The notes: generated by a model not told the origin, from the letters alone. Shown: positions 2,824-9,443, numbered from the stretch's first letter. The stretch is DNA of 26,827 nt from a virus (IMGVR_UViG_3300045235_000025:1-26827), one strand, 5' to 3'. Program-made: numbers and translations.

Positions 2824-2868
2824 AAGACAGCATCGTAACGTTCGAATCGTATGGCCGGAGATCGGAAA

Positions 2869-3534
2869 GTGATGCTCGCGATCGCGGATCCGCCCTACCC
2901 GCCGCTGTTCTCGGAAAGGTTCGACACCGCGGACGGTTCGCCACGGCTACTGACCCGCTCGCGGGCTCGACGCTGGTACGGGGACGGCACCCGGGGTCGC
3001 ACAGATTCGCCGCCAGCGGACTTCCACGCTGACGCCGGTATCTGGGACCACCTCGGCGAGCACCGACGACTAATGGAACGACTGATAGACGAGTACGACG
3101 GGTGGGCGATCGCGACCACCCCGGATGGGCTCGGCGCGTACCACCCGCTCCCGGTCTCTGCTCATGTGGCCGCGTGGGTGCGCCCGAACGCGATGCCGGG
3201 CGGGCAACGGATCATGTCGCGGTGGGAGCCGGTGATCGTATTCGTGCCGGAGGCCCGCCGCGGCCGCGAGCAGCTACGCGTCGCCGACGTCCTGACCGCA
3301 GCTGCGCCGCGTCGCGGGTTCGCGGGCGCGAAACCGGCCGAGTGGACGCGCTGGGTGCTCGACATGCTCGGCTACGCACCTGGTGAGGACACCGTCACCG
3401 ACCTCTTCCCGGGATCCGGCGCCGTGGCCGCCGCGATCGACGGCATGCTCCCGCTCGCCCCGAACCAGCTTGAAACGCTCGAACGCTTCGGCATCCCCGC
3501 CACCGAACTGAACCTCGAAAGGAACGACGAATGA
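2869..3534 (+). CDS. Compact DNA methyltransferase (amino-MTase, beta motif order)
   Basis: Catalytic DPPY near the N-terminus; KP...V.DLFPGSG SAM-binding motif near the C-terminus. Start is GTG 2869 or ATG 2872 after GGAG (the ORF track starts at 2851). Confidence 0.8.
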   Translation: MMLAIADPPYPPLFSERFDTADGSPRLLTRSRARRWYGDGTRGRTDSPPADFHADAGIWDHLGEHRRLMERLIDEYDGWAIATTPDGLGAYHPLPVSAHVAAWVRPNAMPGGQRIMSRWEPVIVFVPEARRGREQLRVADVLTAAAPRRGFAGAKPAEWTRWVLDMLGYAPGEDTVTDLFPGSGAVAAAIDGMLPLAPNQLETLERFGIPATELNLERNDE

Positions 3535-4016
3535 CCAGCTCGGCGAATCTCTTCGTGGCGCCAATAAGCCTGCGAGAAGCAAACCGATACGTCGCCGAGA
3601 ACCATCGGCACCACGGGCCAACCCGCGGACACCGATTCTCGGTCTCCGTAGTCGACGAGCACGGCGCAATCCGTGGCGTCGGGATCGCGGGCCGCCCCGT
3701 CTCTCGCGTGCTGCAAGCCGAGGGCTACCTCGAGGTCCTGCGCGTCTGCACCGACGGCACCCGGAACGCCTGCTCGATGATCTACGGCGCCCTGCGCAGA
3801 GCCGGGATCGCGCTCGGCTACGAGCCGCAAAAGATCATCACCTACACGCTCGCGTCGGAGCCGGGCGTATCGCTCCGCGCGGCCGGCTGGCATGACGATG
3901 GGCTCGCCGGTGGAGGCGAATGGGGGCGCAAGAGCCGACCCCGTGAAGTTGTCGCGCCGACCGAGACGAAACGACGGTGGCGAGCTGCGCTGCCGGTAGG
4001 GGGTGAGAGCGAGTGA
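3531..4016 (+). CDS. XF1762-like phage protein (Mom/GNAT-like fold suspected)
   Basis: Motifs EAN.YV..NHRHH, GRPVSR, LEVLRVCTDGTRNACSMIYGA, IITYTL..EPG.SLRAAGW recognised from memory of this family; ATGA overlap with the MTase; SD GAAAGGAA. Confidence 0.75.
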   Translation: MTSSANLFVAPISLREANRYVAENHRHHGPTRGHRFSVSVVDEHGAIRGVGIAGRPVSRVLQAEGYLEVLRVCTDGTRNACSMIYGALRRAGIALGYEPQKIITYTLASEPGVSLRAAGWHDDGLAGGGEWGRKSRPREVVAPTETKRRWRAALPVGGESE

Positions 4017-5854: not shown

Positions 5855-6387
5855 AACATCTCCTCGGCTTGCTCCCATGCTTCTGAGATCGCGCCACTCG
5901 CTTCCGCGATTACGCCAAGCGTCTCGTCATCTGGCGAGTCGCCGCGAGAGGCCGCCGAAGCAATTCGCAGCATGCACCGCGATAGCCTCCTTTGCCACCG
6001 CGCGAGCGGCCTGTCTAGGGTGCCAAACTGACCTGCGATGCCGATCGCGGTGATTGAGTAGAGAGCTTCTTCCAAAGGCTTGCGACAGTCGTCCCTATGC
6101 AACCCTCCGATTTCGACAAGCATCCGAGAGTGTAGGTCATCCGGCAGTTCGATCTCGTCCAGAGCACCGCCAGCAGTCGCGGGGTCGTTGAGATGCTGCT
6201 CGAGTACGAGCAGATGCTCGATCAGCTCTCGGCCCTCCCGCTCGTGACGTTCGGCTACCTGCCGTTCGTAACCCACCGCTTCACTCTTACGCCTCGCCCA
6301 TTCGACGAGCCAAGTGCTTCCTAGAGCGATACCGCCACCGACAAGAGCGCCAGCAACTGGCGAAGATAGCGCAGCATCGAACGTCAT
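5851..6387 (-). CDS. Moron-like membrane-anchored hypothetical protein
   Basis: N-terminal helix VAGALVGGGIALGSTWLV followed by a helical domain; lower GC; convergent 4-nt overlap with the upstream gene. Confidence 0.8.
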   Translation of the reverse strand: MTFDAALSSPVAGALVGGGIALGSTWLVEWARRKSEAVGYERQVAERHEREGRELIEHLLVLEQHLNDPATAGGALDEIELPDDLHSRMLVEIGGLHRDDCRKPLEEALYSITAIGIAGQFGTLDRPLARWQRRLSRCMLRIASAASRGDSPDDETLGVIAEASGAISEAWEQAEEMF

Positions 6388-6396
6388 GGATGAATC

Positions 6397-6756
6397 ATGC
6401 CAGCAGACACGAAGAACCGCCTAACATATCGACTCGCCGCCTTGCGGGTCAACCGCTCCGTTCGCACGATTCAACGTTGGCGCAGAGAAGGAATGCCAAT
6501 GGGATTCGACCATATCGGGCGACGAACTGTTGACGAAGAGCTCCTTCTCGCCGAGTTGCGCAGACGCCTTCATGCCGACCCAGTTCACCAGCAGCGGATC
6601 CGCGCCATGGCGGGCGACACGCCGCAGGATGACCTTCTTGACACGCTCTCGGTGTCACCCCCTACTGTGATGGTTGAGCAAATGGGCCGGTACGCGAAAC
6701 ACCTCGCCTTTCCGGAAGGTAAGGCCGAGCGACAGGACCAGGCTTTCAGCCCGTGA
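6397..6756 (+). CDS. MerR/excisionase-like helix-turn-helix protein
   Basis: LTYRLAALRVNRSVRTIQRWRREGM matches the MerR-type HTH pattern; the C-terminal ~40 aa may be read-through over promoter sequence. Confidence 0.75.
   Translation: MPADTKNRLTYRLAALRVNRSVRTIQRWRREGMPMGFDHIGRRTVDEELLLAELRRRLHADPVHQQRIRAMAGDTPQDDLLDTLSVSPPTVMVEQMGRYAKHLAFPEGKAERQDQAFSP
6638..6668 (+). promoter_or_regulatory. Candidate late promoter with a 19-nt spacer and internal inverted repeat
   Basis: TTGACA (6638-6643), N19, TACTGT (6663-6668); TGACAC-N7-GTGTCA at 6639-6657. Confidence 0.55.
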
Positions 6757-6794
6757 AGATAGATTGCACTCATCCCAGAACTCTCTAAAATGGA

Positions 6795-6828
6795 CGGAGC
6801 CGTCCCCACTGCTATGGGGACGGCTCCG
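6795..6828 (-). terminator. Intrinsic terminator for the minus-strand peptide operon (possibly bidirectional)
   Basis: Perfect 14-bp stem CGGAGCCGTCCCCA/TGGGGACGGCTCCG, 6-nt loop, followed by TCCATTTT on the minus strand. Confidence 0.8.
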
Positions 6829-6856
6829 CGTCTAATTTGGACATCGATCTAGTGGA

Positions 6857-6979
6857 TCACTTGCCCCGCTTGGGGGCGTGCCGGACGGTCGTCGACGGAT
6901 GCGACTTGCCATAGCGAGCCGTCACGAACCGTCCGGTCACAGCGGAACGATACGAACCGCCAGAAGACTTCTTACTCAT
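6857..6979 (-). CDS. 40-aa basic peptide MSKKSSGGSYRSAVTGRFVTARYGKSHPSTTVRHAPKRGK
   Basis: Very strong SD GAGAGGAGGTGAAT-ATG; RSAVTGRFVT...HP.TTV resembles a family of small uncharacterised proteins seen in mobile elements (recalled, not searched). Confidence 0.85.
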   Translation of the reverse strand: MSKKSSGGSYRSAVTGRFVTARYGKSHPSTTVRHAPKRGK

Positions 6980-7024
6980 ATTCACCTCCTCTCACTACGG
7001 GGGCCAAGCGTTTAAGACGCCGGC

Positions 7025-7105
7025 CTACTTGGTGCGGATAGTCCCGGTCACGCGCACGGTCACGCCATTGCGCCTGATCGTGCGAGAAACACGCTTGGTT
7101 GCCAT
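7025..7105 (-). CDS. 26-aa basic peptide MATKRVSRTIRRNGVTVRVTGTIRTK
   Basis: Strong SD GAGAGGGGGTGATTTGAA-ATG; alternating hydrophobic/polar strands around an NG turn (beta-hairpin-like). Confidence 0.75.
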   Translation of the reverse strand: MATKRVSRTIRRNGVTVRVTGTIRTK

Positions 7106-7106
7106 T

Positions 7107-7265
7107 TCAAATCACCCCCTCTCGAGGAACTGAGCTCAGCGGGCCGGCCTGGAGCAGGTAGTCCACGCGGTTCAGCCCACAAGTACAAACACGCCCGCCG
7201 ACGATCAATGTTGAGCTATTGAAGCATCTAGGTGTAGCGTGGAGCGGACAAGCCAGTGACAACAT
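7107..7265 (-). CDS. 52-aa putative leader peptide (MLSLACPLHATPRCFN...PREGVI)
   Basis: SD GAAAGGGG upstream of the ATG; open frame runs through the next gene's SD and stops 1 nt before its ATG (TGA-A-ATG); atypical codon usage. Confidence 0.5.
   Translation of the reverse strand: MLSLACPLHATPRCFNSSTLIVGGRVCTCGLNRVDYLLQAGPLSSVPREGVI
7211..7240 (+). promoter_or_regulatory. Candidate sigmaA-type promoter for the antisense sRNA
   Basis: TTGAGC-N18-TAGCGT. Confidence 0.45.
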
Positions 7266-7370
7266 AGGGGTCCCCTTTCGGGATCGGTTGAGCCCAGCGC
7301 CAACTGGGTTTCAGGTTTGGTACACATATGGAGGCCGCCCGGCCGAGGCTGGGCGGCCTCCTGCTTTTCT
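7247..7370 (+). ncRNA. Putative ~125-nt cis-antisense sRNA
   Basis: Bounded by a candidate promoter and a strong terminator; no SD-led ORF inside; internal hairpins TCCC-CTTTC-GGGA (anti-SD in the loop) and GAGCCCAG-N6-CTGGGTTT; complementary to the SD and start of the leader ORF. Confidence 0.5.
7330..7370 (+). terminator. Intrinsic terminator
   Basis: 14-bp stem GGAGGCCGCCCGGC/GCTGGGCGGCCTCC (one G-U), 4-nt loop, then TGCTTTTCT. Confidence 0.8.
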
Positions 7371-7374
7371 GGTC

Positions 7375-7422
7375 TCTCTACATATAGTGAACCACACCCG
7401 GACCAACCACAAGATGAAGTAA
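7375..7422. promoter_or_regulatory. Tandem NrdR-box-like sites
   Basis: TCTCTACATATAGTGA (7375-7390) and CCACAAGATGAAGTAA (7407-7422), 32 bp apart; 12/16 and 9/16 matches to the idealised palindrome ACACTATATATAGTGT. Confidence 0.45.
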
Positions 7423-7512
7423 TTACAACGCTGTAGTTTTCCACTTCATTTCCACCGCCTGTGATCATTACCTGGGGAGAATGTTCGGCGGAGTTCCGCG
7501 TCTCTTGGGTGG

Positions 7513-7521
7513 TTATCCACA
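7513..7521 (+). promoter_or_regulatory. Perfect DnaA box
   Basis: TTATCCACA in AT-enriched intergenic DNA; one-mismatch TTTTCCACT at 7437-7445. Confidence 0.45.
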
Positions 7522-7634
7522 GGCTGGAGTCCCGAGAAGATTTTTCCCTCACACCTTCCCCCCGGCGTGTCAGTTCGCGGACCTCGGAGGGTCTACCCGT
7601 TAGGCACAGGTAAATCTCTCCGAGGAGGAAGCCC

Positions 7635-8156
7635 TTGGTAACCAGCGCGGAACGTTCCTCTGCAAAACGCGCACAGTTCCGCAAGCTACACGCCGACGGC
7701 CTCTCCGCCTCAGCGATCGCTCGCGAGCTCGGTGTCGCGAAGTCCACCATCTCTCGCTGGGCGAAGGCCGACGGGATCGGATTCGACCGAGCGAAGACCG
7801 CGGAGGCGACGGCCGCGAAGAGCATCGACCTGGCGGCGGCGCGTACGCGGCTTGCGGAGAAGATGGCGCACCGTGCCGAGCAGCTTCTCGATTCGCTCGA
7901 CGGCGAGTACCTCGTGTACAGCTTCGGCGGCCGCGACAACACGTACTCGGAGCATCTGCTCAAGAAGCCGCCCGTCGAGGTGATCCGCAACGCGGTCACG
8001 ACGGCAGGGATCACGTTCGACAAGCTGACCCGCATCGTGGAGAAGGATCCCGACGTGTCGGGTGCTGCTTCGGTGGTGCAGTCGCTCGAGGCAGGCATTC
8101 TCGCCGCGGCGGAGGTGCTGCGCGCACCAGGGACGGAGACAATCGAGGAGGCCTGA
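7635..8156 (+). CDS. HTH-domain terminase small subunit
   Basis: N-terminal HTH (GLSASAIARELGVAKSTISRWA), SD GAGGAGG with TTG start, directly upstream of terL. Confidence 0.8.
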   Translation: MVTSAERSSAKRAQFRKLHADGLSASAIARELGVAKSTISRWAKADGIGFDRAKTAEATAAKSIDLAAARTRLAEKMAHRAEQLLDSLDGEYLVYSFGGRDNTYSEHLLKKPPVEVIRNAVTTAGITFDKLTRIVEKDPDVSGAASVVQSLEAGILAAAEVLRAPGTETIEEA

Positions 8157-9443
8157 TTGGACGCGCTCGCCGGCCTCACTTCGATCATGTCGCGAGCGCA
8201 GCTCCTCTCGGTCGCGGACTGCACGCGGGCGAAGATCGCGCTCTGGTCCGGCGCCGTGCGCAGCGGCAAGACATTCATCTCGCTCTTCGCGTTCCTCTTC
8301 GCCGTGCTCCGCGCACCCAAGACCGGTGTGATCATCATTGTCGGCAGGACGCTCGACACGATCAACGGCAACCTGTTCAGCCTGCTCACGAACCCGGAGA
8401 TCTTCGGCCCCCTGGTGAAGCACGTGAAGTACACGCCGGGCGCGAAGACCGCGACCATCCTCGGTCGCACCGTGCACCTGTACGGCGCCAACGACGCGAG
8501 CAGCGAGACGAAGATCCGCGGCCTCACCGTCAGCCTCGCCTACGTCGACGAGGCGACCATCATCCCCGAGGCGTTCTGGGACATGCTCGTCACCCGTCTC
8601 AGCGTCGACGGCGCCCGACTCCTCGCGACCACGAACCCCGGCTCGAAGTCGCACTGGCTGCGGAAGCAGTGGATCCTCAAGGCCCGCAAGAAGTCGCTCA
8701 TCCACTTCGCGTTCACCATGGACGACAACCCCTCGCTGAGCGACCGGTTCAAAGCCGAAATGAAGGCCTCGTATGCCGGCGTCTTCTACCAACGCTTCAT
8801 CCGCGGCGAATGGACCAACGCCGAGGGCGCCGTCTACCCCATGTGGGACGAGCAGAAGCACCTCATCCGTCACGCCGACCTCCCTCCCATCGCACGCACG
8901 CTGGCTGTGGGCATGGACTACGGCACCACCAACGCCACCGTGGCGCTGATCCTCGGCATCACAGACGAAGAACAGCCGCGGCTCGTGTTCATCGACGAGT
9001 GGCACTACGCCAGTTCGGAGCACCACGGCGAGACCCTGCCCGACATCGAACTCAGCCGCCGCTTCCGTGAGTGGCTGCGCACACAGCACGGCACCGATGA
9101 CGTCTACGTGCCGGCCCCCGAGTTCGTGTTCCTCGACCCCTCCGCCGCGTCCATGCGCTCCCAGCTCCACAACGACCACGTCACGTCGTGGGCCGCCGAC
9201 AACGCCGTGCTCGACGGCATCCAGACCCTCGGCTCACTCCTCGCGCAGGGCAAGCTCCTGGTCACCGACCGCTGCAGCACCTTCCTCGCCGAAGTCACCG
9301 AGTACGAGTGGGACTCGAAGGCAGCCGAGGACGGCAAGGACGAAGTCGTCAAGCGCGACGACCACGCCATGGACGCCGGCCGCTACGCGGTGCAGTCGAC
9401 CGTCGGGCAGTGGCACTACGAGATTTACGGCCTCCCTGTCTAG
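8157..9443 (+). CDS. terL: Terminase large subunit (PBSX/SPP1-like)
   Basis: Walker A GAVRSGKT, Walker B YVDE, TTNP coupling motif, nuclease motifs GMDYG, DPSA and DHAMDAGRY. Confidence 0.95.
   Translation: MDALAGLTSIMSRAQLLSVADCTRAKIALWSGAVRSGKTFISLFAFLFAVLRAPKTGVIIIVGRTLDTINGNLFSLLTNPEIFGPLVKHVKYTPGAKTATILGRTVHLYGANDASSETKIRGLTVSLAYVDEATIIPEAFWDMLVTRLSVDGARLLATTNPGSKSHWLRKQWILKARKKSLIHFAFTMDDNPSLSDRFKAEMKASYAGVFYQRFIRGEWTNAEGAVYPMWDEQKHLIRHADLPPIARTLAVGMDYGTTNATVALILGITDEEQPRLVFIDEWHYASSEHHGETLPDIELSRRFREWLRTQHGTDDVYVPAPEFVFLDPSAASMRSQLHNDHVTSWAADNAVLDGIQTLGSLLAQGKLLVTDRCSTFLAEVTEYEWDSKAAEDGKDEVVKRDDHAMDAGRYAVQSTVGQWHYEIYGLPV

Follow-up and report, generated by a model that had tools for sequence, protein, structure and literature searches.

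The virus record IMGVR_UViG_3300045235_000025 of IMG/VR, of which all 26,827 bases (completeness estimate 66%) form the window analysed here, comes from an actinobacterial phage and carries on its minus strand an accessory cassette, which is a conserved operon of three very small proteins of 52, 26 and 40 amino acids (aa), named genes 1, 2 and 3. Our best reading, which we hold with about even confidence, is that the 5' end of this conserved three-gene operon is overlapped by a predicted cis-antisense RNA of about 125 nucleotides (nt), which would block translation of gene 1. A preliminary description made from the DNA of the window had proposed at this place a hidden peptide micro-operon with a leader open reading frame (ORF) and an antisense RNA, and all the features that it listed were found in position by sequence reading and a signal scan. 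The features of the cassette are as follows.

6795-6828, unstranded: hairpin of 14 pairs between the convergent early operon and the cassette, likely the cassette terminator.
6857-6979, minus strand: gene 3, a 40-aa basic protein and single-repeat family member (from homologues, the orthologue in the second phage L104, and the ratio of nonsynonymous to synonymous substitution rates, dN/dS).
7025-7105, minus strand: gene 2, a 26-aa basic peptide (from the L104 orthologue, codon-position identity and dN/dS).
7107-7265, minus strand: gene 1, the 52-aa ORF or "leader", probably a small Cys/His protein (from the L104 alignment and shuffles).
7211-7240, plus strand: promoter-like hexamers for the predicted antisense RNA, within gene 1 (by reading).
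7247-7371, plus strand: predicted cis-antisense RNA of about 125 nt, with hairpins 7269-7285, 7288-7314 and 7330-7361 (from folds).
7266-7377, minus strand: predicted leader of the operon mRNA, untranslated and bounded by the putative promoter and gene 1 (start from conserved hexamers).
7330-7371, plus strand: intrinsic terminator (14-pair G+C-rich hairpin and T-rich tail).
7378-7571, unstranded: conserved non-coding block from the cassette to the terminase gene terS, which holds the predicted operon promoter (from blastn against L104).
7384-7412, minus strand: predicted operon promoter, with -35 at 7412-7407, -10 at 7389-7384 and a 17-base spacer (from conserved blocks).

The three minus-strand ORFs run at 7265-7107 (52 aa), 7105-7025 (26 aa) and 6979-6857 (40 aa), and a single base (7106) separates the stop of the first from the start of the second. 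Upstream of the 26-aa and 40-aa ORFs, the ribosome-binding stretches are almost the same and rich in purines, as had been claimed, presumably since both are long complements of the 16S rRNA 3' tail. The 14-bp downstream terminator of the preliminary description corresponds to the 14 pairs of the hairpin 6795-6828, and its strong plus-strand terminator to the 14-pair hairpin 7330-7361, which has 12 G-C pairs and a T-rich tail to about 7371. The hairpin loop said to oppose the ribosome-binding site is also there: plus-strand positions 7269-7285 form a 6-pair hairpin, whose 5-base loop complements the purine stretch before the 52-aa ORF. The plus-strand promoter fared less well, as its hexamers are present (7211-7216 and 7235-7240, with an 18-base spacer) but are too weak for the sigma-70 scan, which reported none.

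Further evidence for the operon comes from a second phage. Relatives were sought with the small-terminase-like protein, TerS, and five loci were obtained from 11 candidates; two of them are the window's own lineage and one has just 82 bases upstream. In L104, whose terS is 79% identical to that of the window, the minus strand upstream of terS holds ORFs of 56, 26 and 39 aa in the order and spacing seen in the window. The hairpin 7330-7361 lies 65 bases from the gene 1 start in the window and 67 in L104, and 224 and 226 bases, respectively, from gene 2. The gene 1 stop falls 10 bases past the gene 2 start in L104, so that the two genes overlap, and 1 base before it in the window. BLASTP between the two phages gives E values of 1e-6, 1e-7 and 1e-16 for genes 1, 2 and 3, and identity at the three codon positions (0.42/0.53/0.36, 0.70/0.78/0.44 and 0.72/0.79/0.49, respectively) shows a coding pattern in all three. 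This recurrence of the full arrangement in L104 means that the layout exceeds chance. The idea that the architecture travels as a unit thus holds for L104, where it recurs whole, but the gene 3 family is found at more than 130 other loci without the arrangement. The cassette is absent from L105, whose terS is 68% identical, and from L148, which was found via a 119-aa gene of the window (77% identical); both have other ORFs in the slot. In L148, a related prophage, a 252-aa plus-strand ORF at 2829-3587, which reads like a membrane or ion-channel protein, follows the 119-aa gene there.

Genes 2 and 3 are very likely real genes. The gene 2 orthologue of L104 has equal length and equal position, with dN 0.32 and dS 1.52, and that of gene 3 is 66% identical, with dN 0.25 and dS 1.23; dN/dS is about 0.21 and 0.20, respectively, and both genes are under purifying selection. 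By reading, the gene 2 product has 8 Lys/Arg and that of gene 3 has 10, and neither has an acidic residue or a hydrophobic stretch. The reach of genes 1 and 2 is narrow. The protein collection contains neither the 26-aa nor the 52-aa ORF, and tblastn of the 26-aa peptide against deposited phages gave no match; a degenerate pattern of this peptide hit two contigs only, the twin of the window and that of L104. When genes 1 and 2 of both phages were compared with 141 fetched loci, no match surpassed E 0.001, over 25 aa, and these hits were set aside as compositional. None of the three cassette products has a match in Pfam, NCBIfam, PHROG or PADLOC.

Gene 1 is likely a real gene too, and it evolves faster, with dN/dS of about 0.65. 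It aligns with the L104 ORF without gaps from the start codon at 33% identity (E 1e-6), over DNA that is 43% identical, and its BLOSUM score is 51 in its own frame vs -12 and -12 in the others; the score of its core (residues 2-47) was reached by 1 of 100,000 shuffles. About 24% of the shuffles of each gene 1 region stay open, and therefore the open frame alone proves little. Residues C6, H9, C27 and C29 are invariant between window and L104, in a Cys-x2-His ... Cys-x-Cys pattern, and by reading there are synonymous differences in the conserved codons next to the invariant Cys/His. Because the Cys/His residues are kept through synonymous changes, gene 1 is probably a fast-evolving small protein with a possible metal-binding pattern, and not the mere leader of the preliminary description. 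So weak a constraint would equally suit a frame retained chiefly for the sake of being translated. No membrane-span-like run is read in the 52-aa product.

The case for an RNA on the opposite strand rests on conserved folds. Between the 7330-7361 hairpin and gene 2 there is no blastn similarity between window and L104, though the layout is kept. The predicted plus-strand RNA has 125 nt in the window and 126 nt in L104, and in either phage the plus strand forms three hairpins in the fold, with a T-rich tail after the third. For the plus strand, the fold has a z score of -3.56 in the window and -4.56 in L104, vs -2.20 and -1.33 for the minus strand. Each of the six hairpins, taken by itself, gains 1.2 to 8.0 kcal/mol in stability on the plus strand. 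The operon 3' hairpin has the opposite bias in both phages and acts as an internal control: the hairpin 6795-6828, which by reading has its T-run on the minus strand, has -34.8 kcal/mol on the minus strand vs -31.9 on the plus strand, and its L104 counterpart (1640-1690) -35.2 vs -32.0. In a consensus structure, 12 of 30 pairs are changed on both sides vs 0-3 in slid-partner controls, a count that leans in favour of the structure because this was derived from the same two sequences. The loop of the first hairpin complements the gene 1 ribosome-binding stretch in both phages, though the stretch itself differs. These conserved folds support a cis-antisense RNA over the gene 1 ribosome-binding site.

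The two ends of this RNA are of unequal standing. That the plus-strand terminator exists is highly likely: in 7330-7361, a G-U pair on the plus strand is a mismatch on the minus strand, and the L104 counterpart (2183-2216) has 15 pairs on the plus strand only, with 4 T in its tail, so it was not listed by the scan. At the other end, hexamers of the form TTG-N3 and TA-N3-T with an 18-base spacer stand in the same codon register in the window and in L104 (2062-2067 and 2086-2091), by reading. About 4 of the 6 fixed bases are unexplained by conserved amino acids, with a chance of about 0.03 by a rough post hoc estimate. That a dedicated antisense RNA exists is, to us, an evenly balanced matter. 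Of the antisense-gated module proposed earlier, a plus-strand element with a terminator over the gene 1 ribosome-binding site and start stands, and the antisense RNA is predicted only.

Under the reading of an antisense-gated operon, the operon mRNA would be transcribed leftward from about 7377 to the hairpin 6828-6795, and the plus-strand RNA would start at about 7247 within gene 1, end at 7371 and be complementary to the operon leader, the gene 1 ribosome-binding site and the first codons of gene 1. Pairing would probably start loop to loop at the hairpin with the complement of this ribosome-binding site, and would hide the site and the start codon, leaving less translation of gene 1. Through the abutting stop and start, the share of gene 2 translation that depends on ribosomes from gene 1 would be reduced as well. 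Alternatively, the RNA duplex could be marked for cleavage. Gene 3, which has its own ribosome-binding site 45 bases further on, may escape. The basic products of the operon would likely bind nucleic acid.

Several points weigh against this reading. Since genes 2 and 3 each have a strong ribosome-binding site, a block of gene 1 need not silence them; in the window mRNA, the predicted unpaired fraction is 0.59 at the gene 2 site and 0.46 at the gene 3 site. Gene 1 has a G+C of only 0.60 at third codon positions, no homologue in the protein collection, and a structure model with a predicted local distance difference test score (pLDDT) of 45, which is unconfident and unusable. In the -10-like hexamer, conserved His and Thr codons of gene 1 already dictate two of the three key bases, and the sigma-70 scan reports no plus-strand promoter in the window or in L104. 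To these are added the shared origin of the consensus structure and its test sequences, noted above, and the fact that only two independent cassette lineages exist. Contigs from four metatranscriptome runs (X19-X22) cover 6695-7427, 6805-7403, 6974-7371 and 6959-7164, and these RNA-library contigs are unstranded, have a depth about that of the flanks and may include DNA carry-over. Their right ends at 7371-7427 were rejected as transcript ends, as the contigs of DNA runs break there too, because another contig shares 7378-7398.

The same observations bear on a rather doubtful alternative, by which 7330-7361 is a terminator that stops leak-through from the early operon before the cassette promoter and the late genes, there is no dedicated small RNA, and the smaller hairpins are incidental or serve the mRNA leader. 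The scans that report no plus-strand promoter suit it, and so do the RNA-library contigs, which cross the whole cassette and are unbroken at 7247, the T-poor plus-strand tail after 6795-6828, with which leak-through is plausible, and the fact that terminators on both sides are usual for accessory cassettes. It accounts poorly for the two smaller hairpins, which are also kept in place with two-sided pair changes and a plus-strand bias, and for promoter-like hexamers in the same register in both phages; moreover, a single terminator directly after 6756 would be enough to insulate the cassette. Another function for the plus-strand unit, which is very unlikely, would be that of a late-operon leader: 7211-7240 would be a promoter that gives a short terminated RNA unless a phage factor allows read-through to terS, as the late promoter, 6S RNA and Q do in lambda. 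The unit does lie 270 bases upstream of terS on the same strand, and the gene 6397-6756, with a helix-turn-helix-like stretch, is conserved in L104 and L148. But the cassette-free L105 and L148 run plus-strand ORFs up to or toward terS without such a unit, the unit travels with the cassette, and the late promoter could lie in a conserved block closer to terS.

Two other explanations read the three ORFs differently. That they are chance ORFs in a non-coding spacer, with only the terminators functional, is extremely unlikely. It would agree with the absence of the 52-aa and 26-aa ORFs from the protein collection, with the lack of a family model match for any of the three and with the share of about 24% of gene 1 region shuffles that stay open; it conflicts with the coding signatures conserved in the second phage, which contradict it for genes 2 and 3, and with a count of over 130 gene 3 homologues. 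A type I toxin-antitoxin or abortive-infection module, in which a toxic soluble basic peptide is held by an antisense RNA antitoxin via the leader ORF, is decidedly unlikely. Its architecture is as described and conserved, bacterial gene 3 relatives sit behind DNA-damage-sensing repressors by defence genes, where tight control seems to matter, and a Fic/Doc domain is fused or directly adjacent to one relative. However, none of the products has a hydrophobic segment, the gene 3 family is usually free-standing with an ordinary ribosome-binding site and without a leader or antisense element, the gene 2 ribosome-binding site is not sequestered, and the "leader" looks like a protein. It is also unlikely that the cassette is a new kind of RNA-gated small-protein module in phage-host conflict, in which a cis-antisense RNA would restrain all three tiny proteins. 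Gene 3 would there be a one-repeat version of a protein that is kept in bacteria under CapH/CapP or WYL repressors, which sense DNA damage, in front of defence operons such as CBASS and TIR, and it would act either as a type I toxin, soluble and able to bind nucleic acid, or as a mimic disturbing the host's defence switch.

Among known systems, hok/mok/sok is the type I toxin-antitoxin of plasmid R1, whose toxin is a small hydrophobic membrane protein of about 50 aa, and the preliminary description had ascribed its logic to the cassette. The likeness is that the upstream frame of the cassette stops beside the start of the small gene that follows or overlaps it, with an antisense RNA predicted over the ribosome-binding site of the upstream frame. 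The cassette differs at gene 2, whose ribosome-binding site is strong and, by prediction, largely unpaired and exposed, unlike that of hok; moreover, the upstream frame keeps Cys/His, and the products are basic and hydrophilic and are not membrane peptides. Membership in hok/sok also finds no support, as no Hok/Sok or other Rfam model matches: at the gathering score there are 0 Rfam matches in the window, and in 6700-7700 there are three chance-level rows (E 0.35-3.2). SymE/SymR of E. coli is a type I pair with a soluble AbrB-fold toxin, in which, as is predicted for the cassette, an antisense RNA that begins in the 5' coding region spans the start codon and ribosome-binding site of a gene for a soluble protein; the cassette differs in its products, which have no Pfam match or similarity to SymE, in its three genes and in its phage setting. 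In CopA/tap/repA of plasmid R1, the antisense RNA acts via a leader peptide coupled to the next gene, and the sar RNA of phage P22 blocks ant by the cis-antisense principle in a phage accessory region. Both share with the prediction for the cassette a small stem-loop cis-antisense RNA at a ribosome-binding site within an operon, but the genes are unrelated and the cassette targets neither replication nor antirepressor genes. Phage morons are accessory cassettes with their own promoter and terminator. As in these, the cassette stands opposite to its neighbours, has flanking terminators and a lower, deviating G+C, and occurs in 2 of 4 related lineages at one slot, with a promoter of its own that is inferred; unlike them, it has a conserved structured element on the antisense strand and unusually small products.

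Gene 3 is, as judged from sequence comparison, a single-repeat member of a widespread uncharacterised family of small proteins. Its repeat has about 30 aa and occurs once or twice per protein, with invariant R11, S12, A13, G16, V19, P28, T30 and T31 (window numbering). Four other relatives are present in the protein collection (HMMER E 8e-16 to 4.6e-14), of which one is single-repeat and 90% identical (P0005, on 2 contigs) and three are two-repeat proteins of 70 aa. Family loci were confirmed in 81 of 123 candidate stretches of species genomes (80 kept), 13 of 166 candidates in metagenome contigs and 40 of 51 in viral contigs; L003 and L004 were rejected as family loci, as they lie in other frames or within larger ORFs. 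In genomes, the majority of copies come from Alphaproteobacteria, encode two repeats in about 70 aa and have ordinary ribosome-binding sites, and single-repeat copies come from Actinomycetota and many phage contigs. The family model, of moderate confidence (pLDDT 68), predicts strand-strand-helix-strand in each repeat; it has 0 Foldseek matches at E <= 0.001, and 0 of 48,161 chains reach Z >= 2. The family matches only "hypothetical protein" clusters in the ESM Atlas, and a full-text literature search with family motif strings found no paper.

Some members merit separate mention. Mycobacterium phage prophi68-1 holds an unannotated single-repeat member (2426-2581 of locus L149, 12062-12217 of the record); it runs in the opposite direction between the genes annotated "excise" and "DNA binding protein", where the gene numbering skips 19. 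A relative in Komagataeibacter phage phiKX1 has the annotation of a hypothetical protein and stands alone on the opposite strand. At 1274-1441 of L092, just 3' of a single-repeat gene, there is a 55-aa ORF that is very basic, contains internal repeats and has a good ribosome-binding site. Eleven loci from different Rhodobacterales genera (L006, L009, L010, L013, L017, L019, L021-L023, L029 and L042) have near-identical 5' flanks and neighbours, which are a TacA/GNAT pair and, further on, ArdC; this suggests one recently spread mobile element.

The surroundings of the family were scanned with Pfam (104 of 255 distinct neighbour ORFs) and PADLOC (43 neighbours). By PADLOC, the neighbours include capP in 5 loci (L056, L059, L066, L079, L084), capH in 2 (L079, L084), WYL regulators in 5 (L035, L050, L060, L065, L072), CBASS cyclases in 2 (L034, L079), a SAVED-HNH effector in 1 (L079), ThsB-like TIR proteins in 2 (L044, L066), PtuB in 1, MkoA-like helicases in 2, and Tmn and a type I methyltransferase in 1 each. 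By Pfam, they include TacA/GNAT pairs, RES, ArdC, relaxase, resolvases, an IS110 transposase and, immediately 3', small genes of DUF1508, DUF3892 and DUF2188. Divergent regulators lie directly upstream of the two-repeat gene at four loci, L079 and L084 with capH and capP, and L056 and L059 with capP (a helix-turn-helix gene there was outside the scan). The two-repeat genes behind capH/capP are then followed by DUF1508 genes, by CBASS genes (SAVED-HNH effector and cyclase) or by ThsB-like TIR genes, and the gene 3 family may be part of DNA-damage-controlled defence operons. Two-repeat relatives beside defence regulators or genes can be seen at about 1200-4100 in L056, L059, L079 and L084, and also in L034, L044 and L066. 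With respect to CapH/CapP and WYL (CapW-like) systems, the likeness lies in these two-repeat relatives, directly downstream of divergent capH/capP or beside WYL genes; unlike them, the phage gene 3 has one repeat and no such repressor nearby, and its control would be by RNA. According to the available parts of the CapH/CapP preprint, control of CapH/CapP operons is triggered by DNA damage, and DUF2188, DUF3892 and "hypothetical protein" genes are among those in such operons; the gene 3 family is not named in these parts (bioRxiv 10.1101/2022.04.27.489752).

Longer proteins with the repeat number 22 at E <= 0.001, of which 12 were domain-scanned. One has sigma-70 and LuxR-type domains N-terminal to two repeats, and another has a Fic/Doc domain N-terminal to one repeat, which may be two adjacent genes called as one. 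In two further groups, the repeats come after an N-terminal domain and a helix-turn-helix-like stretch (by reading). Because of these C-terminal fusions, we infer that the repeat serves as a tail that binds nucleic acid or is associated with regulators. The nucleic-acid role that had been suggested earlier for the basic peptides would fit the fusions of the 40-aa repeat to the C-terminus of a sigma factor and of helix-turn-helix proteins. Proteins with a C-terminal repeat are P0019, P0021, P0010-P0012, P0018, P0024 and P0026; several other long forms look like mis-called starts.

The block 7378-7571 upstream of the operon has 68% identity to L104 by blastn, in conserved patches, and no match in L105. 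In the window/L104 alignment, two conserved patches flank by eye a variable 17-base spacer, and they would be the minus-strand operon promoter, with a start at about 7377, just beyond the predicted end of the antisense RNA; the sigma-70 scan does not report this promoter. A 9-base run (7513-7521), which is invariant between both phages, matches the DnaA-box consensus. In all four DNA runs, another contig of greater depth is identical over 7378-7398 and differs at 8 positions in 7473-7526, and its flanks are unrelated. As parts of the block thus occur on an otherwise unrelated contig, it may be a control (promoter/operator) module used with other cargo.

The cassette sits in an 878-base gap between the early genes and the terminase genes. 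The G+C of the window is about 68%, with about 0.69 over most of it outside the cassette vs 0.59-0.61 in the cassette gap, and nearly all its real genes are on the plus strand. The early genes encode a DnaB-like helicase, SSB, a Mom-like DNA modification protein (3531-4016; PHROG 1384, E 4.8e-31) and unknown proteins, and the last of them is the 119-aa gene 6397-6756, whose helix-turn-helix-like stretch is read by eye and which is kept in L104 and L148. The plus strand 3' of the gap has the helix-turn-helix/small-terminase-like gene terS (7635-8156), the large terminase, the portal, and head and tail genes. The portal has <=39% identity to portals of Streptomyces, Gordonia and Microbacterium phages, and the window has no DNA similarity to deposited phages. 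Public runs that contain the window stretch are labelled ant metagenome, and across four DNA runs there are no natural differences in 6300-8300.

The 26-aa and 40-aa genes, which are of a kind mostly missed by annotation pipelines, are under clear purifying selection, and the cassette is a concrete case for real micro-proteins in phage spacers. Gene 3 gives a small handle on an unstudied family whose members may head DNA-damage-controlled defence operons and are fused to transcription factors. To our knowledge, few RNA regulators have been described in actinobacterial phages, and the antisense RNA, if true, would be a compact example of RNA gating of an accessory operon in one of them.

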